Source: a virus. From it: DNA of 64,000 bases. The translations under genes were made by a program, and so were the position numbers. Of the stretch, positions 6,259 through 48,235 are shown in pieces. The notes beneath the pieces are model-generated. The model was not told where the DNA came from. It made no database searches and saw only the letters and a list, made by a program, of their open reading frames with translations. Where the stretch lies: the IMG/VR virus record IMGVR_UViG_3300036801_000174, positions 9,383-73,382 of that record. One strand, written 5' to 3'. Each line of letters begins with the position of its first letter. The stretch's first letter is position 1.

Positions 6259-6648
6259 ATGATCAGCGAGGAGCAGGTGGCATTCCTGGCCGCGCGGCTT
6301 GACGAGGACGAGACGAGTGCCAAACTGGCTGCCCGCGAGGGTGGCACGTGGACGCAAGACGATCCCGCACGCTTCCCGGGTTCGATCTCAAGCCTTGGCG
6401 GCCCGGTCGTTTACGACGAAGGCGCACCGGATGAGAACCAGGCTCCGCACATCGTTCGGTTTGACCCGAACCGTATGCTCCGCGACGTGGCGGCCGACCG
6501 GCAGCTGCTCGCCGCCTGGCAGCAAGCGGAGGCTGCTACACCTGCTAGCGCCTGGGAGAGCGACTACGCGCAGGCGCTAGAACGGGCCGTCAGGATCCGG
6601 GCCGCCGTCTACAGCGACCACCCGGACTACGGGAAGTTGTTCGGCTAG
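6259..6648 (+). CDS. DUF6221-family protein (counter-oriented)
   Basis: FLAARLDEDE...HIVRFDPNRMLRDVAADRQLL...YSDHPDY signature; -10 GAAGAT 6 nt before ATG. Confidence 0.8.
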   Translation: MISEEQVAFLAARLDEDETSAKLAAREGGTWTQDDPARFPGSISSLGGPVVYDEGAPDENQAPHIVRFDPNRMLRDVAADRQLLAAWQQAEAATPASAWESDYAQALERAVRIRAAVYSDHPDYGKLFG

Positions 6649-14678: not shown

Positions 14679-15227
14679 ATGAGCGATGACCTGGTGACAT
14701 GGCTGCGGGAGCAGATCACGGCCGACCTGGAAGCGGCGAGGATCGTCGGCGCGGGAGGCTTTGAGCCGGAGCGATGGGATACCGACCCGCCGGGACAGGT
14801 GAACCCGGCACCCGCCCCCTACGGAGACCAGATCAACGCCGTGCTTGTGCCAGATCCCGAGGACCGGCGTGATCGCGAAAGCCTGCCCGGCTGGGTGGAG
14901 GTCGTCAGCTATAACCGGATGCTCGGCAAACCACCTGAGGCCGACTGCCGGGACGATGACCTGCCGGTCGCGCTTGTCGACTATGGGCGGCGCGAGGTGG
15001 ATCACATCTGCCGTCACGACCCGCGCAACGTGGTCGCCCGCTGCGAGGCGGAACTGGCCATCCTGGATGAGTGCGACCTGCTGCTGAAGGTCGGCATCGC
15101 CTTCCCGGATGAGGCAGGCGTCGAGTCAGCGGAGCGGATCATGCGCCTGATCGGCGCGGCCTACCGTCACCGTGACGGCTACCTGGAGGAGTGGGCACCC
15201 GCCGCTGCCCTCCAGGGCAGCGGCTAG
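14679..15227 (+). CDS. DUF6221-family protein (second copy, counter-oriented)
   Basis: LVTWLREQI...HICRHDPRNVVARCEAELAILD...YRHRDGYLEEW. Confidence 0.8.
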   Translation: MSDDLVTWLREQITADLEAARIVGAGGFEPERWDTDPPGQVNPAPAPYGDQINAVLVPDPEDRRDRESLPGWVEVVSYNRMLGKPPEADCRDDDLPVALVDYGRREVDHICRHDPRNVVARCEAELAILDECDLLLKVGIAFPDEAGVESAERIMRLIGAAYRHRDGYLEEWAPAAALQGSG

Positions 15228-18200
15228 CCCGGGATCAGGCTGCAGTTGCACCGGGGATGAGCCGGCGGCATGGTGTCGCCGCTTGAGAACGGCTGCCCGA
15301 GCGGGACGCGCCCCTCCGCCTCATTGTCCAGGCAGACCGGGCAGACGATCCCCGCCGCCGGGTCGGTGAGCCAGAGGCTGTACTCCACGCCGTTCTCCGG
15401 GTACGTGTCCATGGCAGCCTGCGCCGACGCCCCGGTGACCTGATCCATGGCCGCGCCTTCAGCCACGTCCGGGGCTGCCACGGCTCCGGCCAGCTGGTCT
15501 CCGAGGTCCCGCATGCTGGTGCCGCCGGTCACGCCACCCAGGACCCGGCTGAGCACCGCCGTGAACGCGCCCGTGATGGCTGTGACCGCGGCAGCCACAG
15601 CACCAGCCAGGAACGCGCTGAGCGCCGCGTCAAGGCCGAGAGAGGCAACCTGCCGCACGGCACCCTGGGTGTCCCCGGGCGGGGCGGCCTGCACGACCCT
15701 GTCATGGCCGTTCACCAGTGCCGTGGCGGAAACCGCGCCGATGAGATAGCCGCCGGTCACGATGCCCTCAGCGACCGCAGCCAGCGGCAGCGTGATGCCC
15801 GAGGCGGCCAGCCACTCCGCCAGCCATGCGGCTGCGGCACCGTTGCGGTCCCGCTTGCCCGGTGCGTCTCCTTGCTGTGCCGGGTTGGCTGCCAGGTAGG
15901 ACATGGCCATCCGGTCCAGCACGGCGGGAGTCAGTGCCCGGGAGACGGCAGCGGTGACCTGGGGTGCCCAGTAGGCGACTGCCGGGCCGTCATGTTCCCA
16001 GCCCGGCCAGACTTTTGGGGGGCTCGCAGCTTTGGTGACCTCGGCGGCGCCGAGAGGGAAGCGGCCGACATCATTGCCGCAGTGCACTGACAGGTGAGTG
16101 AACGTCACCGGGGTCTCAGGCACGGCGGCGGGGAGCGGGTCACCGGGCTCCGTGTAGGCCAGGGTGACATGCGGGTGCCAGTCAGCATGCTCGCTGGCGG
16201 ACAGGTCCGCCAGCGACTCCCGGAGCTGCTCAGCACCAGGGAGCACGACCCCGGCCCATGCGGGAGTCTTCCCGTCGCTGCTGTCCGATGGCGGGAACGT
16301 GCCGATGCCGCCCACGGTCCCGGTCAAGGGCCCGGGCATTGCTGCCGCTGCGGTGCCCGCGCGTTCGCACGCTTGCATCAGTGCTACCTCGTCCACGTCC
16401 GGGCCGAGGTAGACGATGGTGATGTGGTGATCCGTGACGCCGCCCGGGACCGGATCAATCAGCCCTTCCGGCAGGTCCAGCGAGATCATGCCCGAGCGCG
16501 GGCCCAGGTCATAGCCGCTGGTGTCCTTGCGGACTTTCACCCGGGCTGCGGCGTTCAGCTGTGCCGCCTCGGCAGCGTCCACGTGGCGGAACTCGAAGTC
16601 GCGCCACGTCCCGGCCTTGCGCCGTGCCTTCTCGAACCGGCGGAACGCGGCGAGTTCGGACTTCACCACTGCGGCCTGATCCTCCGGGCCGTCCTCGTCG
16701 TCGTCCTGCCCGATGAGGTCGTAGCTGGTGATGCCGGTGTCAGCGGTGATCCCCGTTGTGGGGGTGCCGCCTTCGCCTGCTTCCTTGGCGACCGTGCCCG
16801 GCTGCGGCGGCGGCGCGGGAGGCAGCGCCTTCGGCCCGTACTCCTGCTCAGCGAGGGGCTCGGCCACCAGCGGCGGGTTCGGCAGCACACCCTGAACACC
16901 CGTGAACGCCTCGTGCGGCAGCGGGGCATCCGGGTCCGGGGCGGCGGTCTGCGCGTCGACCGGCCCGGCAACCCCGTACAGCGCCGAGAGGGGGATGGGG
17001 CCGCCGCGTGTGGTGAAGAACACCCGCGGCACCGTCTGGCCCTCGGGCTCGGCCAGGCCGAACCGCATCTCCCGGATCTCAGACGCGCCGACGACGCCGT
17101 TCTGGATGTAGATCTGGTCGGACTGGGCGACGTTGAGCTGGTCGTCCTGTTCCTCGCCGCGGTCGAACTCGAACTCCAGCGGCAGGCCCAGGTCGTCGAT
17201 GATGAATGCGGACAGGATGCCCTCGATGTGCTCCATCAGGGGCAGGTCGCCGACGCGGTGCTGCACGTCGGCCTGCGACTCGCCGGAGGAGCGGTTGACA
17301 TCCTCGGTGAAGCCCAGGTCCGACGGGACCACGTGGAAACTTGCGCAGGTCTTCCGCATCAGGAAGAGGCTGAAGGTGTCGGTGAACTCTTTCTCGTTGC
17401 TCCACGTGAACTGGCTGCCGCCGGGCAGCCAGCGGATCTGGTGTTTGGCGGCCTGGTCGCCGTAGATCATGGAGTCCCAGTAGGCTTGGAAGGTCTCGAT
17501 CTGGTCGGGGTTCCACGACTCCGGGGCGCTGGCGAAGGCTTCCGGTATGTTTCCTTCCGTAAAGCGCTGCAAAAAGTAGATCTGGAAGCGTATGTCCGTA
17601 TTCGCATTGAGCATGATCGACTCAATAGGCGCGTGGCCGTAGGGCGAGTCGCTGTGCGGGCGGAAAGGCTCGTAGATCAGGTCATCCCTGGTCAGCCAGC
17701 CCCACGGCAGCCCGTTCGCGTACTGGACGTACGCCTCGGCGGGCGGCTCCGGCGAATCGCCCCAGTAATCCAGCAGCGGCGCGATCAGCGTCCCGTCAAC
17801 CGGCTTCAGCCCGATGCACTGCCCCGCGCGGTTGCGCATCCGGTACAGCGCCCCGGCGTCGTAGGCGAGAATGTCGTACGCGTACTTGGCGAACCAGGCC
17901 TTGAAACTCTGCTTGCGGTCAGGCTTCTTCAGCGCCTTCTGCGCAAGCGCAATCGCGCCGGTAACGTCCCCGGTGTAGCCCTGGGTAGCGATCAGCTTCC
18001 ACTTCAGGCTGCGGATCGAGTCAATCCTGTGCCAGATACATATGTCCGCAACGTCGTAGGCCCCTATAAGGCCCTTGAGCGCATCGAAACTGACCCGCTC
18101 ATGCGTCCTCGGGCGGGTCGCCACGTTGTACGACGTGGTGTAATCAAGGACGCGGGGAGTGCGGGAATACCCGTCATACGGCCCGACCGGCTCACCTGGG

Positions 18201-18349
18201 GAGAACGGGTGATCGGGGCCCATCTGCGAGACGCCGGCCGCCGCCTGGTGCATCGCTTCGGGACCGGGCCCGGCCAGTGTCTCCACGTCAGTGCCGAGGG
18301 CTTTGGCGGCGCGGGTCAGCGTCCCTGCGATGCGAGTGCGGACGCCCAT
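15224..18349 (-). CDS. Portal protein fused to 2H phosphoesterase and MuF-like domains
   Basis: N-terminal portal (SPYGHAPIE, FHVVPSDLGF, EIREMRFGL); middle HxT pair (HHITIVY, HVTLAY); C-terminal VCPVCLDN...PPAHPRCNC. Confidence 0.85.
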   Translation of the reverse strand: MGVRTRIAGTLTRAAKALGTDVETLAGPGPEAMHQAAAGVSQMGPDHPFSPGEPVGPYDGYSRTPRVLDYTTSYNVATRPRTHERVSFDALKGLIGAYDVADICIWHRIDSIRSLKWKLIATQGYTGDVTGAIALAQKALKKPDRKQSFKAWFAKYAYDILAYDAGALYRMRNRAGQCIGLKPVDGTLIAPLLDYWGDSPEPPAEAYVQYANGLPWGWLTRDDLIYEPFRPHSDSPYGHAPIESIMLNANTDIRFQIYFLQRFTEGNIPEAFASAPESWNPDQIETFQAYWDSMIYGDQAAKHQIRWLPGGSQFTWSNEKEFTDTFSLFLMRKTCASFHVVPSDLGFTEDVNRSSGESQADVQHRVGDLPLMEHIEGILSAFIIDDLGLPLEFEFDRGEEQDDQLNVAQSDQIYIQNGVVGASEIREMRFGLAEPEGQTVPRVFFTTRGGPIPLSALYGVAGPVDAQTAAPDPDAPLPHEAFTGVQGVLPNPPLVAEPLAEQEYGPKALPPAPPPQPGTVAKEAGEGGTPTTGITADTGITSYDLIGQDDDEDGPEDQAAVVKSELAAFRRFEKARRKAGTWRDFEFRHVDAAEAAQLNAAARVKVRKDTSGYDLGPRSGMISLDLPEGLIDPVPGGVTDHHITIVYLGPDVDEVALMQACERAGTAAAAMPGPLTGTVGGIGTFPPSDSSDGKTPAWAGVVLPGAEQLRESLADLSASEHADWHPHVTLAYTEPGDPLPAAVPETPVTFTHLSVHCGNDVGRFPLGAAEVTKAASPPKVWPGWEHDGPAVAYWAPQVTAAVSRALTPAVLDRMAMSYLAANPAQQGDAPGKRDRNGAAAAWLAEWLAASGITLPLAAVAEGIVTGGYLIGAVSATALVNGHDRVVQAAPPGDTQGAVRQVASLGLDAALSAFLAGAVAAAVTAITGAFTAVLSRVLGGVTGGTSMRDLGDQLAGAVAAPDVAEGAAMDQVTGASAQAAMDTYPENGVEYSLWLTDPAAGIVCPVCLDNEAEGRVPLGQPFSSGDTMPPAHPRCNCSLIPG

Positions 18350-25298: not shown

Positions 25299-26450
25299 TC
25301 ATCCTCCCTCGGCGACCGCGTGAAGCGGGCGCGGCGCCCTCTCGGCCTGCACCTCGGCCAGCAGTCGCCCGGCCGTCTTATCGCCGACAGGAAGCTCCTT
25401 CATCACCAGGTACTTGGAGACCTTGCCGCGGTCGGCGAACAGTTCCCGGATGCCTTCCCGGATGTCCTCGTCGGTTGCCTTCCGGCCACCCTTCCGGCGT
25501 GCCTTCTGGACGGCACCTGCGGGTGGCTTCTGCGGGGCAGTTGCGGATGCCTTCCGGGGGGCCGTCTGTGGTGCATCCCCAGCGGGTAGCTCAGGTGCCG
25601 CCTGAGTGACCGTCTCGGGTGCAGTCTGGAGGTCGTTCGAGATGGCCTCCGAGAGGGCCTCCGAGAGCCCCAGGCGGCGTGACAGCCAGCTGTCCAAGAC
25701 CGGCTCCCAGTGAGCCGCTCCGCCCCACGTAAGGCCGTCCTCGATGGCCTGGCGCACATCGGCCGGGAAGCGGCCCGTGCGCATGGCCGTGGCCACCGAC
25801 AGCGGCACCGGCAGGCCAGGCTTGCGGGCCAGCACCGCGGCCACGGTGTCGCGCAGGTAGACGCGGGCGTCCTCAATGGCGTTCATCAGCGGCCAGGTGG
25901 TGACGCCGAGCAGGTTCTTGCGGCGCCACATGAAAAACGTCGGGCCCGGCGATGCCATCCAGCGCCGGAGCGGGATCGCGTCGACTGGCTCGGGCGGCGG
26001 CTTGCGGAGCGCCTTCCAGATCAGCCGGAGCACCTCGATGCCGAGGACCCAGGCTGTGGGGCAGGCCGCAGCGAGGATGACCCACAGCAGCGAGTCCGCG
26101 AGCGTGGCTGCCCCGTTGCCGAAGATGGTCAGTGCGGCGAATCCCCAGGCCGCGATCCTGGCCAGCCGCGACGGCCAGCCCAGGGCAACCAGGAGGTGAT
26201 CGGCGATGACGTAGGTCGGGATGCCCAGGTCGATCATCAGGGGCAGCAGCCACGGCGAGTGCCAGCCATGGGCCGCAGCTGCGGCGGACAGGTTCCAATA
26301 CGAGAACCAGGCGCCGGCGGCCATGGAGGCGATGACGAACGCGACTGCCACGCCGAGCCAGAGCTTCTGGGTGTCGCTGAGACGGCTGCGTCGGGCGTGG
26401 GCGGGCAGTGCAGGTGTCGGTGCGTGCATGCCGTCCATGTTGGCGGTCAC
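25299..26450 (-). CDS. DUF2637 / SpdB-like membrane protein
   Basis: SYWNL..A...LPLMID motif, several TMs, DAIPLRRWMASPGPTF, C-terminal HTH-like end. Confidence 0.75.
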   Translation of the reverse strand: MTANMDGMHAPTPALPAHARRSRLSDTQKLWLGVAVAFVIASMAAGAWFSYWNLSAAAAAHGWHSPWLLPLMIDLGIPTYVIADHLLVALGWPSRLARIAAWGFAALTIFGNGAATLADSLLWVILAAACPTAWVLGIEVLRLIWKALRKPPPEPVDAIPLRRWMASPGPTFFMWRRKNLLGVTTWPLMNAIEDARVYLRDTVAAVLARKPGLPVPLSVATAMRTGRFPADVRQAIEDGLTWGGAAHWEPVLDSWLSRRLGLSEALSEAISNDLQTAPETVTQAAPELPAGDAPQTAPRKASATAPQKPPAGAVQKARRKGGRKATDEDIREGIRELFADRGKVSKYLVMKELPVGDKTAGRLLAEVQAERAPRPLHAVAEGG

Positions 26451-30971: not shown

Positions 30972-31625
30972 TCAGCGGCTACGGGCACGGGTGGGCTGGC
31001 GGATGGTCTCGTGAGGCAGCGGGTGCGCGGTCCTGGCAGGTGCCGGTGCGCTGCGCTCCTCCGGGGCGTGGCCGTTGGTGGCGGCCTTGCCGGGCTCGCT
31101 GCGGGTGACGTCCTTCTGGGCGCCATCGGGGCGCGGGTCGCGGCCACGGGGCATCGGGTGGTCCTCCTGGCCAGGCCGGGTCCGTGCGCTGAGACGCTGG
31201 CGCAGCGACGGACGCCCGGTGCGCTCCTTACGGGGCTTCTGGCCCTTCTCCCGGCGCTCCGCCCGCTGGTCCCGGTCCCGCTGCCTGAGGTCGGCTTTGG
31301 CCAGCGGGCGGTCAGTGAGCGGGGTGTAGCCGCGCCAGGGAGTGGCCGGGCCGGGTGCCTGGCGCTTCGGCGCCTTCGCTGGCTCAGCGCGGACGCCGAG
31401 GGTCTTGTGCATCCGCTTCGGCGTGACCTTGCGCACCGCAGCCTTAGCCACCGCCGCGCTCCGGACCCTGGCACCGCGCTGGCGGTGCAGGATCTTCTGG
31501 ATCTCGCGGTGGGCCGCTACCCGCACTGAGTGGAACGGAGAGCGCAGCGCCTTGATCGCCTTCTGCAGCTTCAGCTTGTCGCGGACGCTGAGGGGGCGGT
31601 AACTGGATCCTTTTCCTGTAGCCAC
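30972..31625 (-). CDS. Highly basic hypothetical protein
   Basis: AAGGAG RBS; Arg/Lys-rich; ends TRARSR. Confidence 0.6.
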   Translation of the reverse strand: MATGKGSSYRPLSVRDKLKLQKAIKALRSPFHSVRVAAHREIQKILHRQRGARVRSAAVAKAAVRKVTPKRMHKTLGVRAEPAKAPKRQAPGPATPWRGYTPLTDRPLAKADLRQRDRDQRAERREKGQKPRKERTGRPSLRQRLSARTRPGQEDHPMPRGRDPRPDGAQKDVTRSEPGKAATNGHAPEERSAPAPARTAHPLPHETIRQPTRARSR

Positions 31626-33400
31626 TGCGGGCTCCTTGCTTCAGACGGGATCTTGCTGCCATCGGAGACGGCAGGCGGGACGGGTACGGCGGGCATCGGG
31701 ATGGCCTGGCGGTGCGGGGCCTCGATCGCGGGCTGCGGCTGCGGTGCGCAGGCCGGGAAATTCTCGGGGCCGAGAGGGGCGGCGCAGTAACCGCGGCGCT
31801 CCCACACGGGCGTGACGCGGGCGAACACCGGGCGGGTAGACCGGTGCAGCACCAGGGCCTCGAACTTGGCCAGCATGCGGATGCGCTCCGGCGGCACGGC
31901 GCGCTCCTGGCGTGGCTGCCTGGTTTTCCCGCCGCCGGGGTTCTTGACGTGATCCCAGGTGTCGCGTGGCCCGCACACCGCAGAGATGGCCTCAAGATCC
32001 TGGTGGTTCGTCTCCCCGCCGAAAATGACCTTCACTGTGGCGTTGGTGAAAATCGTCTGGCCGTCCTGGTCGCCCCAGCGTGACCGCAACTGCGAGAGTG
32101 CCTGGATAGACGCCATAACGGTGACGCCATGGCCGCCGGACTCACTCATCCACTTGTGCAGCGGCACCGGGCAGGTGATCGGCGCCTCGTCCAGGGCCAG
32201 GGTCAGCGGGCGGGGCAGGCGCGTGCGGGGGCTGGAGGACGCGACCCTCTTCGCGGTCTCAAACAGGTGCGCGGTGAACGTGGCGAAGTAGGGGGCCAGG
32301 GAACCGTGCGGCTTGTCGGCGCCGATCAGGTAGATCGTGCCGGTGCCATCGCGCACGAAGCGCTCAGCATCGAACTCCGTCCCCGGCGCGGGGCATGCAG
32401 CGGCGGCCATGGCCGGGTCGGACAGCCACGCCAGGGCGGTCATCACGCCCGTGGACGTGTAGCCGCCGTAGTTCTCGTCAGTGTTCATGCGCTCGGCCAT
32501 CGCGGCGATCTCGTCGCCCCACCCGGGCGCCGCGTTAGCGTGCGTGGCCAGCACCCTGAGGGGGGTGGGGTCGGCGAGAACGGCAGCGGCCCAGCGGCGC
32601 ACTTCCCAGATCGTCGCGCCGGGGATCAGGGCGGCCGCATGAAGCAGATACTGCAGGAAAGTCTTGGACTGGTGATCCCACCATGCGTCCTTGCCGGAGG
32701 AGTCCTTCGGCGCGGCGTTGATCAGGTATCCGGCGCGCTGCATCGCCACCGCCGGGTTCTCGCAGCCGCGTACAGGCGACCACGACAGGGTTGAGGGGAT
32801 GCCGCCATCGCCGTCAGGGTTCAGCACCCAGATGGGCCCGTGGGCGCTGCGCGGGACGGCGGTATTGGCGTACAGGTCGGTGCGCGTCGAGGTGGCCAGT
32901 ACCGCCCCGGGGGCATCAGAAATCCAGCAGCCCAGCAGCCCGGACTTCCCGGTCCGGGGCGGCGCTATGAGGATGTAGGTGTCTTCGGCGCTGCCAGCGA
33001 GCGTTCGGCCTTTCGCGTCGCCGATGACGACGTGTGATGTGTGGATGCCCGCGGTGCGGCGGCTGGCGGCGCGGGGTGACAAGTTGCCGCTGATCTCGCT
33101 GCGCGACGCTGTGCCCTGGTACTTGCGGCGCCTGCGCTCGGCCACCTTCCCGCCGGCGCGGCGCAAGCGCACAGCGTCGGTCACACCACGGACCCGCAGT
33201 ACCGTGACCCCGCCAAGCGCTACCCAGCCGTAGGGGATGCCCGGGGCCATGTGGGCCGCCTCGGCGATGATCCCGGCGGTCAGGATGACGGCCGGTGGTG
33301 CGGTGCCCCTGATGGCCGAGCGCTTGGCCCTGCTGGCGCGGTCACGGACGGACCGCGGCAGGACGCTGCGCTTGGCCTTCGGGGCGGCGTTGGTCTTCAC
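31571..33400 (-). CDS. VirD4/TraG-like type IV coupling protein
   Basis: APPRTGKS Walker A, VLATSTRTD, WSPVRGC, LALDEA Walker B, IQALSQLRSRWG, NATVKVIFGG. Confidence 0.85.
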   Translation of the reverse strand: MKTNAAPKAKRSVLPRSVRDRASRAKRSAIRGTAPPAVILTAGIIAEAAHMAPGIPYGWVALGGVTVLRVRGVTDAVRLRRAGGKVAERRRRKYQGTASRSEISGNLSPRAASRRTAGIHTSHVVIGDAKGRTLAGSAEDTYILIAPPRTGKSGLLGCWISDAPGAVLATSTRTDLYANTAVPRSAHGPIWVLNPDGDGGIPSTLSWSPVRGCENPAVAMQRAGYLINAAPKDSSGKDAWWDHQSKTFLQYLLHAAALIPGATIWEVRRWAAAVLADPTPLRVLATHANAAPGWGDEIAAMAERMNTDENYGGYTSTGVMTALAWLSDPAMAAAACPAPGTEFDAERFVRDGTGTIYLIGADKPHGSLAPYFATFTAHLFETAKRVASSSPRTRLPRPLTLALDEAPITCPVPLHKWMSESGGHGVTVMASIQALSQLRSRWGDQDGQTIFTNATVKVIFGGETNHQDLEAISAVCGPRDTWDHVKNPGGGKTRQPRQERAVPPERIRMLAKFEALVLHRSTRPVFARVTPVWERRGYCAAPLGPENFPACAPQPQPAIEAPHRQAIPMPAVPVPPAVSDGSKIPSEARSPQWLQEKDPVTAPSASATS

Positions 33401-37909: not shown

Positions 37910-38326
37910 ATGAGCATCGGGCCGTCGTACCAGCTGGTGGCCGATGACATCTGCGCCCAGATCACCTCAGGCCGCCTGGCAGTAGGCAAGCCGATCCCGT
38001 CAACGCGCGAACTCATGGCCCAGTACAAGGTGTCCAGCACCGTCGCGCGCCATGCCGTGGAAGTCCTCAAGGACGCTGGCGTGCTCGACGGCCACCCCGG
38101 GAAAGGCGTCTACGTCAAGGCCCTCCCCAAGCAGGCCGCAGCGGAGCGGGCCGACGCGCAGGCGCTGGCAAAGGAAGTCGCCGAGTTCCGCGACGAGGTC
38201 GATGAGCGCTTCGCCGAGATCTACCGGCGGATGGGCTGGGATGAGCACAGCCAGGAAGGACAACACGATGAGCAGCGACACAACGGGCGTCGTCTCCCTG
38301 GCGCTGCGGGAGGCCTACAAGCCTGA
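37910..38326 (+). CDS. GntR-family repressor (KorA/KorSA-like)
   Basis: YQLVADDI..I.SG.L..G..IPSTREL..Y.VS..V..A...L...G...GKGVYV. Confidence 0.85.
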   Translation: MSIGPSYQLVADDICAQITSGRLAVGKPIPSTRELMAQYKVSSTVARHAVEVLKDAGVLDGHPGKGVYVKALPKQAAAERADAQALAKEVAEFRDEVDERFAEIYRRMGWDEHSQEGQHDEQRHNGRRLPGAAGGLQA

Positions 38327-39059
38327 CTTCCGCTCCCTGGCATCCGGGCAGGTCCGCGCGACCAGGGAGAAACTCGGTTTAGACCATGAAGAGTTCGCCG
38401 CTCACCTGACAAGCATGCTGGGCTGGGCGGTGCAGCCTGGCGTCGTCGCCCGCTGGGAACGGGGCGAAGGCACGCCGCCCGGCGACGTGGTCAAGGCCGC
38501 AGAGGTGGCAGCACAGTCAGGACCGGACGACCCTGAGCCCAGTGGCGTCATGCCCTACGCCGACCGGGGCCTGATCTCCCGCCAGCAGTGGAACGGGATG
38601 ATCGCCGGGTCGCAGGAGTTCTTGTGGCTGTACGGGATGGCCGAGCTCGGGTACGCCGAAGACGACGAGACCCCGGTCATCATCAGCGCGGCGGCAGAGG
38701 CCGGGTGCGAGGTGCGGGTGCTGCTGCTCGACCCCGCCTACCCGGGGATACCGGACATCGACGCGGCCGAAGGCAACCCGCCCGGGACGCTTGCGGCGAG
38801 GATCGGGGCCTCCCTGGCGCGGTTCTCGCGGATCCGGCAGGCCAGCGGCGGCCAGATGCAGCTGCGGGTCTACGGCACCCACCCGACCGTGAGCGTGGTG
38901 CGCGGCGATGACGAGATGCTGATCACCCACTACATGCGGTCGTTCGCCGGGTCCAACAGCCCGACGATCGGCGCGACGGCTTCGTCGGCGCCGCGGATGT
39001 TCGCGCGCTACGCTCGCCACTTCGCTGCGGCATGGGACGGCGCGAGGGAGGCGGCGTGA
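38268..39059 (+). CDS. XRE-HTH plus DUF5919-like domain protein
   Basis: VARWERGEGTP HTH; VRVLLLDP...LRVY...RGDDEMLI..Y...SPT. Confidence 0.75.
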   Translation: MSSDTTGVVSLALREAYKPDFRSLASGQVRATREKLGLDHEEFAAHLTSMLGWAVQPGVVARWERGEGTPPGDVVKAAEVAAQSGPDDPEPSGVMPYADRGLISRQQWNGMIAGSQEFLWLYGMAELGYAEDDETPVIISAAAEAGCEVRVLLLDPAYPGIPDIDAAEGNPPGTLAARIGASLARFSRIRQASGGQMQLRVYGTHPTVSVVRGDDEMLITHYMRSFAGSNSPTIGATASSAPRMFARYARHFAAAWDGAREAA

Positions 39060-39646
39060 CGCTCACTAGGGACCACGGTTGCGTTATGAGCATGCAGGAC
39101 GCCGAGATCGCGGACACCGAAGTGCTGCTCGACGGGCCCAAGCGGTTCGTCCGCCAGGCCCTGGTGATGCCGGACGGGGAGAAACTCGACTGGTACTACC
39201 AGGACACCCCCGCCAGCGTGATGGTCGTCCCGGTACTGCCCGGCGGCCAGTTCGTGATGGTGTACCAGTACCGATGGAATTTGCGTCACTATGCGCTGGA
39301 GTTCCCGGCCGGTGAGGTCGCGCCAGGGGAGACGCTCGAGGTGGCGCTCAAGCGGGAGCTCGCCGAGGAGACCGGGTTCGCTCTCGGCGAGGGCGGGACG
39401 ATGAAGCAGCTGGGCTCGTTCTACAGCCTGCCTTCCGAGACGAACAAGGTGACCCACGTTTTCCTGGCACGGCCCGTGGTATCGGCCGGGCCGGCCCGCA
39501 AGGACGACGAGATCGAGAAGTATTTCAACCTGACGGTGCATATCACAGCGCCAGGTCTGGCCATGGCACAGATCGGGAAGTCGGTTGCGGGGACCGAGAC
39601 CATCACCGCGCTGATGCTGGCCAGGGACGCTATGGGGCGGGAGTAG
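39056..39646 (+). CDS. Nudix hydrolase
   Basis: Nudix box GEVAPGETLEVALKRELAEETG. Confidence 0.92.
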   Translation: MTLTRDHGCVMSMQDAEIADTEVLLDGPKRFVRQALVMPDGEKLDWYYQDTPASVMVVPVLPGGQFVMVYQYRWNLRHYALEFPAGEVAPGETLEVALKRELAEETGFALGEGGTMKQLGSFYSLPSETNKVTHVFLARPVVSAGPARKDDEIEKYFNLTVHITAPGLAMAQIGKSVAGTETITALMLARDAMGRE

Positions 39647-42197: not shown

Positions 42198-42968
42198 ATG
42201 ACCGAGACACTTGCCGAAGTCCACGCCTGGGCATTACAGGCCGCCCTCGCCGAGTTCTGGCAGAACCCGCAGGCGAACCGGATCACGAGCCGGGTGCCGG
42301 GCCGGATCGCGGGCAGCGATCATGACCAGCTAGTCCCTGAGGGCGTCAGCAATCCTTACTGGGAACTCGTCCGCCAGATGCCCTCGGACACCATTGGCGA
42401 CCCGTGGCGCAAGATCCCCGGCCCGGACCCCTACTTTGGCGCGCTGGACGGCCGCTGCCTCGTGGACCGTCACTCGCTGTGCGGCATGTACTCCTGGGCG
42501 ATCCCCTCGCCGGGCGACATCGCGTGGATCTCTGAGCGCCTGGACGGGAAGGGCATCGTTGAGCCGGGCGCGGGCAGTGGCTACTGGGCGTGGCAGCTCG
42601 TGCAGGCCGGCGTTGACATCGTGGCTTATGAGCCGGTCGCCCCGGAGGACAACAAGTTCGTGACCGGCCCTCAGTGGCATCCGGTCCTGCCCGACGACCA
42701 CGGCGTGACTGCGCAGCACCCGGACCGCTCCCTGCTGCTGTGCTGGCCGTCCTACAGCGAGCCATGGGCCGCATGGTCACTGGCCGCCTACAAGGGGGAC
42801 CAGCTTTTCTACATCGGTGAGGGACCGGGTGGCTGCTGCGCCGATGAGGAGTTCTTCAGCCTGCTTGACGCCGAGTGGGAGGAAGCCGGGGACTGCCCGG
42901 CGCATGTCAGCTACTCCTGCATTCACTGCTACCTGACCGAGTACCGCCGAAAGTCAGCAGGCCAGTGA
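42198..42968 (+). CDS. Class I SAM-dependent methyltransferase-like protein
   Basis: IVEPGAGSGYWA, LLLCWP, YIGE motifs. Confidence 0.7.
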   Translation: MTETLAEVHAWALQAALAEFWQNPQANRITSRVPGRIAGSDHDQLVPEGVSNPYWELVRQMPSDTIGDPWRKIPGPDPYFGALDGRCLVDRHSLCGMYSWAIPSPGDIAWISERLDGKGIVEPGAGSGYWAWQLVQAGVDIVAYEPVAPEDNKFVTGPQWHPVLPDDHGVTAQHPDRSLLLCWPSYSEPWAAWSLAAYKGDQLFYIGEGPGGCCADEEFFSLLDAEWEEAGDCPAHVSYSCIHCYLTEYRRKSAGQ

Positions 42969-43029
42969 ACGCCATCCTCCGTGAAGCCCTGTCGGACCTG
43001 CGCGAGAAGATCGAGAAGGAGAGCAAGCC

Positions 43030-43281
43030 ATGAGCACCATCACCCGCAAGCCGTCCAAGCCCTGGCGCGTCGAGGGCAACACATCCCCCGTTGACTGCAC
43101 CAGCAAGGCCGATGCCTATGAGGTCGTCTCGGCGCTGGCCAAGGCTGGCGTCAGGACCGTCGTGCATCAGTGGATAAGCGGCTGCTGGGTGCTGTACGAG
43201 ATCGCCGAGCCCGGCCTGACCGCCAAGACCTCCCGGTACCCAGACACCAAGGAGAACGACGATGCCACTTCCGGTCGCTAG
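43030..43281 (+). CDS. Hypothetical protein
   Basis: RBS and codon bias. Confidence 0.55.
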   Translation: MSTITRKPSKPWRVEGNTSPVDCTSKADAYEVVSALAKAGVRTVVHQWISGCWVLYEIAEPGLTAKTSRYPDTKENDDATSGR

Positions 43282-43732
43282 CAGCGACGGCCTCACCATC
43301 CCCGCCGGGGACTTCAACGACGACGGCCTGGCCGTGATCATCCTTCAGGGGGGCCGCTACGGCGGTGACTGGACCGTTCACGCCATGATCGACGGCGACA
43401 GTCTCGGCGAGTTCAGCACCGAAGTGGACGCCCGGCGCAAGGCCGAACTGCAAACTGATCCCGGCTACCCGGACCGCGCCATCGAGACCGCATTCATCTG
43501 GCTCATGGGTGAGGCGAAGCGGCAGGGCATGCGCGTGGTCTTCTTCGAGTGCCTGAACAGCCGCTACGACGCGGAAAGCCGTCCGTACTTCTGCGCCGCG
43601 CAGGCACTGGTCGCCAGTGCGGCATTCACCCCGGAGGCCGGTGTCACTTACGCCGACGAGATGACCCTTGACGCGGTCATGGGCTACGCCACGGCCCCCG
43701 CTGACACCGGGTCCACATCCTCTCCGGGATAG
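43262..43732 (+). CDS. Hypothetical protein
   Basis: AAGGAG RBS. Confidence 0.65.
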   Translation: MPLPVASSDGLTIPAGDFNDDGLAVIILQGGRYGGDWTVHAMIDGDSLGEFSTEVDARRKAELQTDPGYPDRAIETAFIWLMGEAKRQGMRVVFFECLNSRYDAESRPYFCAAQALVASAAFTPEAGVTYADEMTLDAVMGYATAPADTGSTSSPG

Positions 43733-43778
43733 CCCGTACCACCATCGGCGAGATACTGAAGAAGGCGAGCGAGCAGCA

Positions 43779-44054
43779 ATGAAGATCACCGTCACGACAA
43801 CGCCAGCCGAACTGATGGACCGCGGCTGCTGGGATGCCGCCTGCGCAATGCTCGGCTTCAGCCCGCTGATCGTCAGCGAAGGCCAGATGGGCTCCGACTG
43901 CTCCATGATCCTTTCCGAGGCGCAAGCATGGAGGCTCGGGCTCATGCCATTCCGGCCCGGCCTAGAAGCTGAGCTTGAGGTCAACCACCTCGACGGCGAT
44001 CCGACGAACAACGACCCCGGCAACCTTGAGCTACGGGAACGGGAGCAGTCATGA
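43779..44054 (+). CDS. Hypothetical protein with C-terminal HNH-like remnant
   Basis: VNHLDGDPTNNDPGNLEL. Confidence 0.55.
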   Translation: MKITVTTTPAELMDRGCWDAACAMLGFSPLIVSEGQMGSDCSMILSEAQAWRLGLMPFRPGLEAELEVNHLDGDPTNNDPGNLELREREQS

Positions 44055-44326
44055 GCACCGACGACAAGATCACGGTCCCGGTAATCCAAGTCGTGATGCT
44101 GGCCGTCGCAGCCCTCAACGGCCGCAAACTCGACTACGTGCCAGACGCCATCTGGCGTGAACTGCCGGACGCCTGGAAGGGCGAGCTCAACCGCATCCGC
44201 ACAGCCAGCGCCCGGGAGCCCTTGCTGACCACCCACGGCGGCAAGGTCGTTGACGCACGCGAGAACTACGCCCCCAGCAATCTGAGGTGGCAGGACCGCA
44301 GCGACCCGGAAGAGAGCAAGCGATGA
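44051..44326 (+). CDS. Hypothetical protein
   Basis: ATGA coupling. Confidence 0.6.
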   Translation: MSTDDKITVPVIQVVMLAVAALNGRKLDYVPDAIWRELPDAWKGELNRIRTASAREPLLTTHGGKVVDARENYAPSNLRWQDRSDPEESKR

Positions 44327-44517
44327 GCCCCAAGGTCGACAGCCAGACTCCCGCATGGGTCCTGGACATCGTCACCGAGCAGATCGGCCGCGGTGAGCAG
44401 ATGCTCATAGACCACATGCTGGAGACCGGCGAGGACGTCTCCGACACCGCGCTGTGGATTCACCGCCGGAGCCAGTTCCTGAGCCTTCTGGCTCAGCGGG
44501 CGATGGCACCGCGATGA
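44323..44517 (+). CDS. Hypothetical protein
   Basis: ATGA coupling. Confidence 0.55.
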   Translation: MSPKVDSQTPAWVLDIVTEQIGRGEQMLIDHMLETGEDVSDTALWIHRRSQFLSLLAQRAMAPR

Positions 44518-44548
44518 CCCAGGACCAGGAGAGCGCCGAGGAGAAGAG

Positions 44549-44830
44549 ATGAGCGAGCCTGAAGCAGCCGCGAACGAGCCGACCGAGGCTCCCCAGGGCG
44601 CCCGGTGCCCTTCAACCTCGAGGGCAGGGCGCTACCGCTACCCGGCCGGCGTGCAGTACGTCGGCGTGCAGTGCAAGTTCACCGAAGGCCACGAAGGTGA
44701 TCACGCGGCAGACGGGGAGAATAGCCGCGGCGATGTGTTCTGGTCGCAGGACTCTGCCCCGGAGGCGCGGGAGTGGGCCCCGACCGCCCGCGAACAGGTA
44801 GACCGTGCCATGCCCCGTTCGGCCGAATGA
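44549..44830 (+). CDS. Hypothetical protein
   Basis: GAGGAG RBS. Confidence 0.55.
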   Translation: MSEPEAAANEPTEAPQGARCPSTSRAGRYRYPAGVQYVGVQCKFTEGHEGDHAADGENSRGDVFWSQDSAPEAREWAPTAREQVDRAMPRSAE

Positions 44831-44951
44831 AACTTGCAATGCTTAATTCATCGCGAATTGCAATTGCGAAATACTACCTAAAGGCCATAGGCATTTCCTC
44901 CCGCACGGGCAATACTGCATTGCGGCGGCACAACTCCCGGGAGGAACAACA

Positions 44952-45095
44952 ATGCGCAAACTCCGGGCCATAGCCGCCCCTGTCCTTGCTGCCGGTTTTC
45001 TTGCCGGTGCTCTCGCCACCGTCGTGCCAGCCATCACATCGGCTCCGGCTGCGGTCGCGGCCGTCGCCGCGCCTGCGGTACACCTGCACTCATGA
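44952..45095 (+). CDS. Small secreted peptide precursor (47 aa)
   Basis: GGGAGGA RBS; MRKLRAIAAPVLAAGFLAGALATVVPAITSAPAAVAAVAAPAVHLHS. Confidence 0.7.
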   Translation: MRKLRAIAAPVLAAGFLAGALATVVPAITSAPAAVAAVAAPAVHLHS

Positions 45096-45557
45096 AGAGC
45101 CTCGCCAACGGGGACGGCCCTGGCGTCGTCCACGCCCTGGGCGCCAGCAGCCCCGGCACGCCCTACGGTCTGACGCTGACCGGCGTGACCCTCAACCAGC
45201 TGCCCGAGATCTGGGCAGGAGCGACTTCGCGCGGCTCGTTGTGAAGCCGCCCCAGGCAGATCCGGTGACCGTCCAGGAGCACCTGGTGCTGCTTGCCTTC
45301 CTGCGTGACCACGAGTACCAGGATGGTGCCCGGCACCGCCCCTGACCCCCAGACCGGTGGCAAGCGGCGCCCAGGTCATCGCTGCCCGCGACCTGGGCGC
45401 CGTCCTGTCCCAGAGGCTTGACAACGGTCACCAGCACGTCACGCTGAAGGTGCGTGCTCCGTCCGTAGTCCGGCAGGGCAGGTAGGTGAGCCGGGAGCGG
45501 TTGACCTCCGATGCACCAAAACGACCGCTCCCGGGCTGCAGCGCTAGGCTGACCCCC

Positions 45558-45725
45558 ATGACCGCTGACGTGCTGGTTCCCCCCGCCTGCCCGGACCTGC
45601 GCGCCGCTCCCCTGGCGCAGCTGCCAGCCCTGGTCGCGGCCCTGGCTCCCGTGCTCGAGCGGCTGATGCCGGAAGTGCCGGTTGCCACGATCGTGCCGGT
45701 GGCGGCCTTCCAGTCGGCTATCTGA
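45558..45725 (+). CDS. FxSxx-COOH family peptide (FxsA-like RiPP precursor)
   Basis: PDLRAAPLAQL...LERL...VAAFQSAI-COOH; leaderless after TAGGCT. Confidence 0.75.
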   Translation: MTADVLVPPACPDLRAAPLAQLPALVAALAPVLERLMPEVPVATIVPVAAFQSAI

Positions 45726-46075
45726 CACTTGTCCTGTTATGCGTAGCGGCGTGACCTGGCGCCGTGGCCGCATCGACCCGCCGTTCTGGTGGCGTCCCTG
45801 GATCACGCCATGGAGCGCGTGGCTGGACTGGTGGACGCGGCCGAGGCCGGTCACGGCCAAGGACTTGCGCAAGACAGGTCCACCCTGACCGGCCAGTACA
45901 AGACGCGCTAATCGCCCCCGCATAAAAGGCCCAATGGTCTACCGCAAAACCGGCGCATGGGATTTCGCCCCCGCACAGTAGCGAATCGCTTTCAATCCGC
46001 GACATCCCGGCGTACTCTCCCAAGCGGGCCATTGCTCGCGGCAAAGCAATCGCCAAGGGGAGGAACCGCAGCGCC

Positions 46076-46504
46076 ATGACTGATCCGCTGCCAGGCGCGT
46101 CAATAGGCGCCCCGCACGAACTGATCTCCTTATACGAGGACTACGGCACCCGGTGGCAAATCTCACCAGTCTGCGACGGGGACAGCGGCTACCACCTCGA
46201 GGCACGGCCCCGGCCGCCCGTCGAGGACTTCGAGCCCGTCACCGCGGACACCCCAGCGGAGATGCGGGAACTGCTCACCGCCCGTGAAGCCCGCCCGGCC
46301 AGCGACGAGGGCGCACGGGTCCGCGCCGACATCGCCCGCCAGCTGGCCCGCGACTTCCCCGGCTGGGACGTCGGCTGTGACCCGGCCGGGTGGGTGGCCC
46401 GCAGAGGGCACCGGGCACTGTGGGCCGGGTCCGCGGTAGCACTCGGGGCGAAGATCGCGGCAGAGAGCGGCCAGTACACCCGGCCCCGGTTACGGGAGCC
46501 ATAG
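46076..46504 (+). CDS. Hypothetical protein
   Basis: GGAGG RBS; LARDFPGWDV motif. Confidence 0.6.
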   Translation: MTDPLPGASIGAPHELISLYEDYGTRWQISPVCDGDSGYHLEARPRPPVEDFEPVTADTPAEMRELLTAREARPASDEGARVRADIARQLARDFPGWDVGCDPAGWVARRGHRALWAGSAVALGAKIAAESGQYTRPRLREP

Positions 46505-46653
46505 TGCCGGGCTGGTTCTGGCCGTTCATCGGCATCTCCGCCGTGGTCTTCGCGATGGGCGTGGCCGTGGCCAGCATGCGCAGCAAGGGCCGTCACGCGG
46601 GCGGGGAGCAGTACCAGGACCAGCCGGGCTGGTGGACGGACTGGGATCCCTAG
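46504..46653 (+). CDS. Small membrane protein
   Basis: TAGTG overlap; one TM. Confidence 0.5.
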   Translation: MPGWFWPFIGISAVVFAMGVAVASMRSKGRHAGGEQYQDQPGWWTDWDP

Positions 46654-46849
46654 AGCGGGCATGGCAGCCCTGCCTCGTCCTGGCCGCCGTCACGGTCAGG
46701 GCCTCCCGGGGCGCGGCTGCCATGCCTTCCACGTCCCGGTGGCGGGTGGCGTATGGATGCGCACATGACACTTGTCCGCTGAGCGGGAAGTCGACTGGGA
46801 GACATCCGCCACCGGGACTACGATGCCACGACCAGTCCAAGGGGGGACC

Positions 46850-47203
46850 GTGACCGAGATCGATGACGACCTGCTGGCCGCGCTGATGCGCCGGGCCGAC
46901 CCGGTTGCCGCTGCTCTCGCCGAGGAGTTCGGCCTGGAGGCGTGCGACGGTGGCTACCGGGTCAAGGACACCGGCACGCACTGGGTTGATGTGACGCGCC
47001 AGATCTACAACTGGCGGATCTGCCGCATCCCCAGGAACTCGCCGATGACATGGGACCGGGGCTGGTGCTATGCAGGGACCGGCCCGGCATCGTTCACGGC
47101 GGCTGTCCTCGCTGCGATGGCGTGGGACGGTGCCGACGGCAGCGAGCCTGCCGGGTGGAACAAGAACATCCAGACCGGTGAGTGGCGACCGCCAGCGAGT
47201 TAG
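46850..47203 (+). CDS. Hypothetical phage protein
   Basis: DRGWCY...AA.AWDG...EPAGWNK. Confidence 0.65.
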   Translation: MTEIDDDLLAALMRRADPVAAALAEEFGLEACDGGYRVKDTGTHWVDVTRQIYNWRICRIPRNSPMTWDRGWCYAGTGPASFTAAVLAAMAWDGADGSEPAGWNKNIQTGEWRPPAS

Positions 47204-47285
47204 TCTGCCGCAGCGGTGGCCGGGCGCGCGCGGTTGTCCGGTCGCCGCTGCAGCTCAAAGACGCACCGAGGGAAAGGGGCTACGC

Positions 47286-47639
47286 ATGACCGAGCACACG
47301 ACGGCCAAACTGGCGAAGGCACTCAGTGGCATCCCCGGAGTACCGCGCGAGATGATCCAGCGGGCCGTGGACGGCTACTACCACGATTACCTCTCGCCGC
47401 TGGCCCTCCCGGAGGTTCAGCTGGTGAGCGACCTGCGGGATCTCGCCTCACGGCCAGCGACACCACGTGACTCCCGGCCGCTGCTGAAAGCGCTCGCGCA
47501 GGCTGTCATCGACGGCGAGCACGACGCGACCAAGGAAGAGTCCGACGCCTGGGCCGCGTCTCCAGATGGCCAGGAGACGTTCCGCCAGTTGCGCGATGAC
47601 GTCACCTTCGGCGGCATGGTCCGCGACATGGACCGCTAG
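47286..47639 (+). CDS. Hypothetical phage protein
   Basis: GYYHDYLSPLALP...GEHDATKEESDAWAASPDGQ. Confidence 0.65.
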   Translation: MTEHTTAKLAKALSGIPGVPREMIQRAVDGYYHDYLSPLALPEVQLVSDLRDLASRPATPRDSRPLLKALAQAVIDGEHDATKEESDAWAASPDGQETFRQLRDDVTFGGMVRDMDR

Positions 47640-47649
47640 CCTTGCGGCC

Positions 47650-47829
47650 ATGATGAACCCGACCTATCACTTCACCCGGATGCGGGAACTGCTAGAAGAG
47701 TTCGAGCCCTCCCGCGAGCGCTCGCTGGCTGCCACGAAGCTCGACGAGTGCGAGATGTGGCTGGACCGCTGCAGCCCCACGGAAGAGGCGCGCAACCGCG
47801 ACATGGCCGCTCCTGCGCCCCGGGCCTGA
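47650..47829 (+). CDS. Acb2/Tad1-like helical hairpin protein
   Basis: SRERSLAATKLDECEMWL; leaderless after TAGCCT. Confidence 0.55.
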   Translation: MMNPTYHFTRMRELLEEFEPSRERSLAATKLDECEMWLDRCSPTEEARNRDMAAPAPRA

Positions 47830-47941
47830 GTGCGCCTGGGCCAGCCTTATCCCCGGTGCCTGAGCGGCCCCGTCAGTCTCACGTCTGGCGGGGCGCTCCG
47901 CTGTCCGGGGGCCAGCGCGAGCGAATCACTAGACTGGATTC

Positions 47942-48235
47942 GTGACTCCGAGCGAGACCGAAGCGCAGAACGCCATCAACGCCGCTGGTGCGGCATCGTC
48001 GGCTGAGTACCTGCGGCGCCTGAAGGCAATGCCGCGCTGGCGTCAGTGGCTCGTGGGCAAACTCGCCCCGCGCTGGCCCTTCACGGTCGCCCAGGCCCCG
48101 CCCGGCGTGATTGAACTGACCAAGCCTCTTGACGTGCCGCCCGGCGTCATCCTCACAGGGACCGTCGCTGACTCTGCCGAGATGGCCGCCTACCAGGAAG
48201 CGTCGAACGAACTGCACTACCTGACGGGAGACTGA
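47942..48235 (+). CDS. Hypothetical protein (leaderless)
   Basis: TAGACT-6-GTG. Confidence 0.55.
   Translation: MTPSETEAQNAINAAGAASSAEYLRRLKAMPRWRQWLVGKLAPRWPFTVAQAPPGVIELTKPLDVPPGVILTGTVADSAEMAAYQEASNELHYLTGD

Follow-up and report, generated by a model that had tools for sequence, protein, structure and literature searches.

We analysed a 64,000-nucleotide stretch of phage DNA, referred to as the window, which covers bases 9383–73382 of the linear, 73,382-bp IMG/VR record IMGVR_UViG_3300036801_000174 (68.6% G+C; positions below are those of the window). The window carries a gene for a 55-amino-acid (aa) homologue of FxsA, the precursor of FxSxx-COOH peptides, which belong to the peptides made by the ribosome and modified after translation (RiPPs), and no gene for the FxsB maturase was detected on the 73-kb record. 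The presence of an orphan FxsA-type precursor homologue in a phage, as proposed by an annotation made from the letters of the window (the first-pass annotation), is confirmed, and its proposed interplay with a host Fxs system is partly supported.

A phage-borne FxsA-type precursor gene

The gene lies on the plus strand in a frame that is open from a GTG at 45486 to the stop codon at 45723–45725 and contains an ATG at 45558. Translated from this ATG, the peptide ends in VAAFQSAI, as originally read, with the last five residues fitting the FxSxx motif, and the stop codon directly follows the fifth of them, leaving a free C-terminus at a length of 55 aa (family length about 45–70 aa). The open reading frame (ORF) has coding-type codon usage, with a log-odds score of +14.4 under a model trained on ten long ORFs of the 73-kb record and ATG 45558 as the best-scoring start, and the G+C content over 45540–45720 was 0.78–0.84 at third against 0.52–0.56 at second codon positions. 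The first-pass annotation had placed the start at 45545, where there is no start codon; this position is the first base of a TAGGCT hexamer, and the start has to be moved to 45558. We ruled out a start at GTG 45486 (79 aa), as the codon score favours the ATG and homologues reach only 54–60 aa, as well as an antisense ORF of 243 aa (45192–45923), whose third-position G+C lies below that of the plus frame and which was dismissed because its richness in Arg, Gly and Ser is typical of high-GC non-coding frames. The elements of the gene and its downstream flank are as follows.

45558–45725 (+): fxsA-like ORF, 55 codons plus TGA stop, recognised by coding potential and homology
45594–45632 (+): conserved leader block D13–L25, the part presumed to be recognised by the maturase, marked by near-invariant columns and the leader profile
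45693–45722 (+): C-terminal core V46–I55, with the FxSxx cross-link motif at 45708–45722
45726–46075 (+): spacer of 350 nt after the stop, in the position held by fxsB in cellular loci, with no FxsB remnant

The curated FxsA model TIGR04268, suggested at the outset as a check, aligned with the ORF over its whole length (model positions 1–44) with 18.2 bits (E 0.0022; 15 bits in a six-frame search of the record), below the cut-off of 28 bits. Cellular members of the same subtype score only 29–41 bits with this model, explaining the sub-threshold score of a diverged phage copy. We compared the ORF directly with its cellular relatives, which were collected by a DNA pattern for the C-terminus that matched 21 metagenome and 6 genome loci. 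Three of these (L015, L023 and L028) were dropped as chance matches, having no leader similarity and, for L028, a frame that reads through the motif; the 24 retained loci encode peptides of 54–60 aa. The phage ORF could be aligned end to end with 18 distinct cellular FxsA peptides at 39–54% identity. In an alignment of 21 sequences, there is no variation at P38 and at nine C-terminal columns and almost none at D13, R15, P18, L19 and R35; with these positions shared with the 18 cellular peptides, the leader pattern noticed in the first pass is real. Within the ten-residue core, nine columns are invariant and one is nearly so, and the window peptide agrees with the cellular peptides at all ten; this invariance arises among the cellular rows partly by construction from the C-terminal pattern, while the phage ORF was chosen otherwise.

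A profile built from the 18 cellular peptides served as a control for chance. Out of the 1333 six-frame ORFs with 30 aa or more that the 73-kb record contains, it picked this ORF alone, with 44.8 bits (E 7.9e-13) and a runner-up at 8.0. Because the cellular rows had been chosen via their C-termini, we repeated the test after deleting the last 11 columns, so that only the leader was left, and again obtained the ORF with 20.2 bits (E 2.7e-5; runner-up 9.1 bits). Of the same 1333 ORFs, 3 end in FxSxx. Judged from these alignments and profiles, together with a close metagenome relative that passes the model (P0003, below), the homology of the ORF to FxsA precursors is secure despite the TIGR04268 score.

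Apart from the query, a word-indexed search of 5.8 billion proteins returned P0002 and P0003, which are encoded on short Joint Genome Institute contigs, measure 56 and 54 aa and have BLASTP identities of 79% and 71%, respectively. An exhaustive HMMER search of 1.84 billion representative proteins retrieved P0003 (72% identical) at E 1.8e-10. P0003 passes TIGR04268 with 42.6 bits and P0002 fails with 23.5 bits; the precomputed Pfam family of both is PF27839. A 1289-aa protein from the representative search (P0004), matched in 11 short stretches, was taken as a low-complexity repeat match. A profile search with the alignment of the three sequences (A1) found no relative in genome, viral or metagenome contigs. 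In the phylogenetic tree, the window peptide forms one group together with P0002 and P0003 (support 98/95), and the cellular type represented by loci L003 and L021 is adjacent (88/92). This phage clade is distinguished by a leader with 3–4 acidic residues, compared with 5–9 in the cellular peptides, and by a higher Ala/Pro content; in P0002 the second core residue is altered.

The orphan status of the gene, first noted as the lack of a radical S-adenosylmethionine (SAM), HEXXH or TPR gene in the window, extends to the whole 73-kb record. There, six-frame searches with TIGR04269 (FxsB), TIGR04267 (HExxH) and NF040586 (FxSxx TPR) gave no match, and a Pfam scan of 98 ORFs showed no Fxs enzyme family. 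For FxsC, the same scan of 98 ORFs showed no TIR family, a six-frame search with an FxsC model not being part of the analysis. Likewise, tblastn with five FxsB proteins gave best E values of 0.92 within 44500–46600 and 0.021 in the whole record, neither of them significant. An fxsB gene elsewhere on the element, which would have spoken against an orphan, was thus not found on the 73 kb, the record being about 72% complete. Similarity to cellular loci in blastn is limited to 45582–45736, i.e. the ORF and at most 11 nt past its stop, indicating a bare ORF without host flanks, and the DNA identity of 68% over 138 nt to the nearest type, rising to 83% over the last 48–57 nt, indicates that the capture is not recent. 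Members of the FxsA family normally lie directly upstream of fxsB and a complete Fxs system has FxsB, HExxH and FxSxx TPR proteins on the same element; neither arrangement is present here. Given the score below the cut-off and the missing adjacency to fxsB, we file the gene as an orphan phage-borne variant and not as an equivalog.

Cellular loci, further orphan copies and the probable host

The cellular loci of this peptide type have the organisation that the first-pass annotation had taken as the norm. In 20 of the 24, fxsB begins 2–30 bp past the fxsA stop or overlaps the fxsA ORF, its products scoring more than 500 bits on TIGR04269 and having, in most cases, the HExxH extension (TIGR04267). 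In L007 and L021, both long loci, the gene order is fxsA–fxsB(HExxH)–fxsC–fxsT, where FxsC is TIR-like (matching NF040588 and TIGR04276) and FxsT is a 1300-aa protein combining a KGGVGR/ParA-like NTPase with the FxSxx TPR module NF040586. Each of the four genomes with this FxsA type has a single FxsA, located beside FxsB.

The literature describes FxsB-type radical SAM/SPASM enzymes as installing cyclophane cross-links on their precursors (PMC10114670), and triceptide precursors as being cleaved ahead of the first cross-link motif. From comparative genomics, Kaur et al. (PMC7159879) predicted that the genes for FxSxx peptide processing are linked to NTP-dependent conflict systems whose members include STAND-TPR proteins. 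A 2026 preprint (10.64898/2026.10.19.760177) likewise predicts an apoptosis-type antiviral system in which FxsC is an active TIR protein and FxsT a switch composed of ParA and an inactive TIR, and suggests for the FxsAB peptide a role as an antiviral molecule or as a diffusible alarm. As far as their accessible text goes, neither of the two (PMC7159879, 10.64898/2026.10.19.760177) mentions phage-borne copies. Our literature search, which did not extend to supplements, returned no report of a phage-encoded FxsA or of a virus relying on a host RiPP maturase.

The survey of phages for solitary FxsA genes that had been suggested was productive in IMG/VR and empty in INPHARED. Scanning IMG/VR with the 21-sequence alignment led to another viral record, G210, of 38.9 kb and an estimated completeness of 32%, with a 55-aa FxsA ORF scoring 41.3–42.2 bits on TIGR04268 (locus L153, 7965–8132, equal to locus L156, 17909–18073). 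Its start overlaps the preceding stop and small phage-type genes follow, forming a tight operon of the replication/early type. The record also has genes for a GH25 lysin, a DnaB-like helicase and RusA. FxsB was not found on the 38.9 kb of G210. The two records are unrelated, sharing just 4 proteins besides FxsA, and the G210 peptide stands apart from the window peptide in the tree, on a long and poorly supported branch. G210 additionally carries a full trigger-factor gene with Trigger_N and Trigger_C domains (L155, 12172–13440, minus strand) and a YdjM-family gene, which could be either host-derived auxiliary genes, host flank or contamination.

In INPHARED, neither blastn with 43000–48000 nor tblastn with the 79-aa frame gave a match, and tblastn with cellular FxsA hit 20 records (best E 0.9), all in tail-spike or tail genes that are not FxsA. 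A scan of IMG/VR for the DNA pattern of the last eight residues plus stop yielded 25 loci, of which 24 were chance matches in low-GC phages or read-through frames; the remaining one (L040) is a 120-aa ORF without a TIGR04268 match.

Four of the 24 loci, all from metagenomes (L011, L014, L016 and L017), show no FxsB in the 522–1436 bp available downstream of fxsA. These contigs hold small genes, in three of the four cases with a PHROG-family neighbour, and L016 and L017 are syntenic; in L017, a DUF6221 gene, a family occurring twice in the window phage, lies beside the orphan FxsA. They are probably further mobile-element-borne orphans. Matches of the four contigs to viral records by tblastx were composition noise only and were set aside.

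Indications of the host came from a TnpB/IS605 OrfB-type gene of the phage (35426–36673, minus strand) with a Cas12f1-like TNB domain. It has 435 relatives in species-representative genomes, the best at 64% in a Streptosporangiaceae genome, and the 80 listed matches are mostly from Streptosporangiales. The same FxsA subtype occurs in two Streptosporangiaceae genomes and two uncultured Actinomycetes genomes. FxsB exceeded the cut-off in 105 of the 201 sampled genomes from the family of one of these, so that the question raised early on, whether the host lineage encodes fxsB, can be answered positively for the probable host family. Together, TnpB kinship, FxsA subtype and the frequency of FxsB make a host carrying a compatible maturase plausible for what we take to be a phage of soil actinomycetes.

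Flanking DNA and phage neighbourhood

The FxsA ORF sits in genuine phage DNA, with hallmark genes on both sides. To its left lie genes for the portal, terminase, an S78-type protease, HNH nucleases and large tail-type ORFs; to its right follow a repressor-like helix-turn-helix (HTH) protein, a PD-(D/E)XK nuclease, a C5 methylase, an IstB-like loader and a DnaB helicase, and the G+C content is even across the region (0.64–0.71). The ORF belongs to a run of small plus-strand genes (42198–48235) flanked by the repressor-like HTH and GntR genes. For comparison we used G001 (99 kb) and G002 (89 kb), two complete but distant IMG/VR relatives found via the terminase, which share 19 and 6 of the 106 ORFs of the record, respectively. 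None of the 15 called ORFs of the run has a counterpart in either, which marks it as a variable accessory region. All seven terminase-found IMG/VR loci are merely mosaic relatives, making synteny unusable; FxsA was found in none of five and FxsB in none of four terminase-related records. The 73-kb record has no tRNA genes and no match to the integrase families PF00589 and PF00239, and the peptide and seven neighbouring ORFs match no PADLOC model.

Around the ORF, coding density is low over about 1.2 kb, and the following elements were noted upstream of it.

45545–45550 (+): −10-like hexamer TAGGCT, ending 7 nt before the ATG, putative promoter of a leaderless mRNA
45491–45534 (no strand): inverted repeat with perfect 11-nt arms set 22 nt apart, shortly upstream of the ATG, candidate operator or hairpin
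45365–45402 (no strand): inverted repeat with perfect 13-nt arms set 12 nt apart, ending 156 nt upstream of the ATG

TAGGCT is the sole TANNNT between 45400 and 45560, and no purine-rich stretch that could serve as a ribosome-binding site precedes ATG 45558. Leaderless mRNAs are common in actinomycetes, and the layout of hexamer and ATG is compatible with a possible leaderless fxsA mRNA. The description of the peptide as leaderless in the first-pass annotation therefore stands as far as the layout goes; a consensus promoter and terminator scan, which found neither near the ORF, lent the TAGGCT box no support. The 13-nt repeat could be a terminator of the upstream unit or a candidate site for a regulator. 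In the 350-nt spacer downstream of the stop, there is no ORF above the caller threshold and no Rfam family, and the fold of the downstream 246 nt is not significant (z −1.24). Ahead of the ORF, coding is sparse for about 700 nt (44830–45558), with weak small ORFs of 47 and 50 aa on the plus strand and one of 66 aa on the minus strand (45163–45363), the latter in agreement with the local frame plot.

Several other genes of the phage deserve mention. At 47650–47829 (+), 1.9 kb downstream of the FxsA ORF, a 59-aa ORF matches the Acb2/Tad1 hairpin family PF24729 with 29.2 bits (cut-off 27) and, weakly, the PDB entry 8kbb, Thoeris anti-defence 1 (E 0.036). Tad1 sponges TIR-made signals; from this role and the domain match, the hairpin ORF may be a candidate sponge for a TIR signal, a hint that the neighbourhood is perhaps a counter-defence region. 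The 1041-aa portal protein (15224–18349, minus strand) contains, in an unusual fusion, a 2'-5' RNA ligase/2H-phosphoesterase-type domain at residues 642–746; 2H phosphoesterases include the Acb1-type enzymes directed against CBASS (cyclic-oligonucleotide-based anti-phage signalling systems). A conjugation-like module with large hypothetical ORFs lies inside the phage at 24093–34256 (minus strand), with a TraG/VirD4-type coupling protein (31571–33400) and a DUF2637 protein (25299–26450) among its members; it is partly common to G001, the coupling proteins being 44% identical. The two DUF6221 genes (6259–6648 and 14679–15227, both plus) are on the strand opposite to the surrounding structural genes. 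Finally, the plus strand carries an HTH-DUF5919 gene (38241–39059) and a NUDIX gene (39086–39646); a NUDIX gene is also present in G210, and such genes may be linked to NAD-related counter-defence.

Possible role of the phage peptide and relation to known systems

We consider it an evenly balanced proposition that the phage peptide relies on the host's FxsB and, to the benefit of the phage, manipulates the Fxs module. Under this reading, fxsA would have been captured as a bare ORF from a Streptosporangiales-type fxs locus and kept as a small independent unit. For a phage with no detected maturase, processing could proceed only through the host FxsB. This radical SAM/SPASM cyclophane synthase, which has an HExxH extension, would be expected to join Phe to Ser of the motif in a cyclophane cross-link. 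With the leader and an unchanged core retained, maturation would yield either the Fxs peptide of the host itself or a look-alike indistinguishable from it. This look-alike would then act on FxsC (TIR-like) and FxsT (ParA-like NTPase, STAND, TPR). The likeliest effect would be to maintain the peptide supply, or to dampen the signal, while infection proceeds and thereby to make the suicide or alarm response fail; alternatively, FxsC and FxsT could be silenced when host synthesis stops, the alarm desensitised, or the response triggered in competitors. The identity of the gene, its orphan status on the record, the usual cellular context and a second, independent viral case are observed, whereas expression of the gene, processing of its product by host FxsB and an effect on FxsC and FxsT are inferred. 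A more specific form of this reading, which we regard as unlikely, takes the host-FxsB-matured peptide as an "all is well" ligand that restrains the TIR–ParA–STAND module of FxsC and FxsT; the host's supply of it would be exhausted once the phage turns off host gene expression, and the phage copy would then disarm abortive infection.

To assess the first step of this mechanism, we modelled the phage peptide in complex with one cellular FxsB, that of locus L019, using its radical SAM/SPASM domain and supplying an alignment for each partner. The median score was 0.49 (runs 0.47, 0.49 and 0.61), compared with 0.00 for the best control. In the calibration, 58 of 80 solved complexes and 2 of 110 mismatched pairs attained the mark, but only 7 of those 80 had scores of 0.60 or below, as did both passing mismatches. 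At least 36% of the contacts agreed between runs, and the predicted local distance difference test (pLDDT) value of the partner was 41–50. The prediction gives weak support for a peptide–FxsB complex, and its pass may stem from likeness to solved radical SAM–peptide complexes.

Several points weigh against the use of the host system by the phage peptide. The ORF remains under the curated TIGR04268 cut-off (18.2 against 28 bits), and its expression is presumed, a promoter, terminator and ribosome-binding site all having gone undetected near it. The smaller number of acidic residues in its leader might weaken recognition by FxsB, and the modelled complex supports such recognition only weakly. 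The CheckV completeness of the record is 72%, such that a maturase could sit in the remaining part. FxsA is absent from both G001 and G002, showing that the gene is dispensable for this phage group, and neither FxsB nor FxsA was detected in G008, the genome with the best TnpB match (completeness unrecorded). Moreover, the immune role of the Fxs locus is itself a prediction.

The first-pass annotation had left open whether the peptide is a mimic or decoy that uses the host system or one that jams it. In the latter case, the precursor would bind the host FxsB via its leader as a competitive or dead-end substrate, a sponge for the maturase that blocks the host peptide. The conserved leader block suits this idea, as do the altered charge and Ala/Pro content of the phage-clade leader, the changed second core residue of P0002 and, tenuously, the predicted placement of the peptide on FxsB. 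Yet a match to the cellular core in all ten C-terminal columns is expected of a substrate that is turned over and not of a dead-end inhibitor; we consider jamming unlikely, and the sequence of a genuine FxsA homologue with a cellular core would fit a mimic better than a blocker. It is equally improbable, in our view, that the peptide renders another service, either as a precursor supplied by a prophage (in lysogenic conversion, phage exclusion or as an antimicrobial) or as a signal from phage to phage or from cell to cell that uses the host maturase. Such a role would agree with the flanking repressor-like HTH and GntR genes, which are compatible with a temperate phage, and with the diffusible alarm or antiviral Fxs peptide proposed in the preprint (10.64898/2026.10.19.760177), but the 73 kb hold no integrase of PF00589 or PF00239, no receptor-like partner adjoins the ORF, and the G210 copy is located inside a replication/early operon.

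Host DNA gained by illegitimate recombination and carried as a silent or neutral passenger would explain why the ORF lies in a variable region, where 0 of 15 ORFs of 42198–48235 have counterparts in G001 or G002, at low coding density over the surrounding 1.2 kb and with no expression signals in the consensus scan. We assign this explanation a similarly low probability: the similarity is trimmed exactly to the ORF, leaving no host flank and no fxsB remnant, the frame, leader block and core are intact although the capture is not recent (68–83% DNA identity to the nearest cellular loci), and the gene occurs as an orphan elsewhere too, in the unrelated G210 and on four short contigs. It appears highly improbable that the gene is no orphan at all and that the phage's own FxsB, perhaps with further components, resides in the roughly 28% absent from the record. 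The estimated completeness of 72% and the linear record lacking terminal repeats leave room for such a gene; in cellular loci, however, fxsB follows within 30 bp of fxsA, compared with 350 nt free of any FxsB trace here, and it was found neither in complete relatives (0 of 4 related records) nor on the 38.9 kb of G210. Weighing these explanations, we favour the use and manipulation of the host Fxs module by the phage peptide.

Fxs loci are widespread in filamentous actinomycetes. Whereas FxsB-type chemistry is known, the biological role of the Fxs peptide in immunity or apoptosis is still a prediction (PMC7159879, 10.64898/2026.10.19.760177). A virus that keeps the precursor gene alone is a natural experiment of the kind that points to function, implying that a phage gains from attacking or borrowing the peptide step, and the phage fxsA provides a simple reagent and a handle on the function of Fxs loci. 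If the favoured reading is true, it would offer an example of a virus that depends on a host RiPP maturase. If the peptide is indeed an "all is well" ligand, this would constitute a previously undescribed viral counter-defence by means of a hijacked host RiPP maturase, and direct genetic evidence for Fxs loci as immune systems under the control of their cyclophane peptide.

Compared with the FxsA precursors of TIGR04268, the phage copy has the same length, aligns end to end at 39–54% identity and shares the leader block and the FxSxx end, but differs in lacking fxsB, fxsC and fxsT, in its score below the cut-off and in its less acidic, Ala/Pro-richer leader. Its cellular relatives lie in loci of the predicted Fxs immune or apoptosis systems (L007 and L021), whereas the phage has the peptide gene only. 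Phage peptide communication is established for arbitrium AimP. A RiPP signal is described with streptide (PMC10114670). Like these two, the phage FxsA is a small ribosomal peptide that depends on processing and is a possible signal; unlike them, it has no adjoining receptor or regulator gene and is a copy of a host peptide rather than a phage-specific one. Phages are also known to counter defence by capturing or imitating signals, as with the sponges Tad1 and Acb2 and with the substitutes that phages make for labile antitoxins. We know of no phage counter-defence peptide that is activated by a host enzyme. The logic of the phage FxsA would be alike, a small phage gene directed against the signalling step of an abortive-infection-type system; however, the sponges and antitoxin substitutes act alone as proteins or RNAs, whereas the phage FxsA would need an enzyme of its host.

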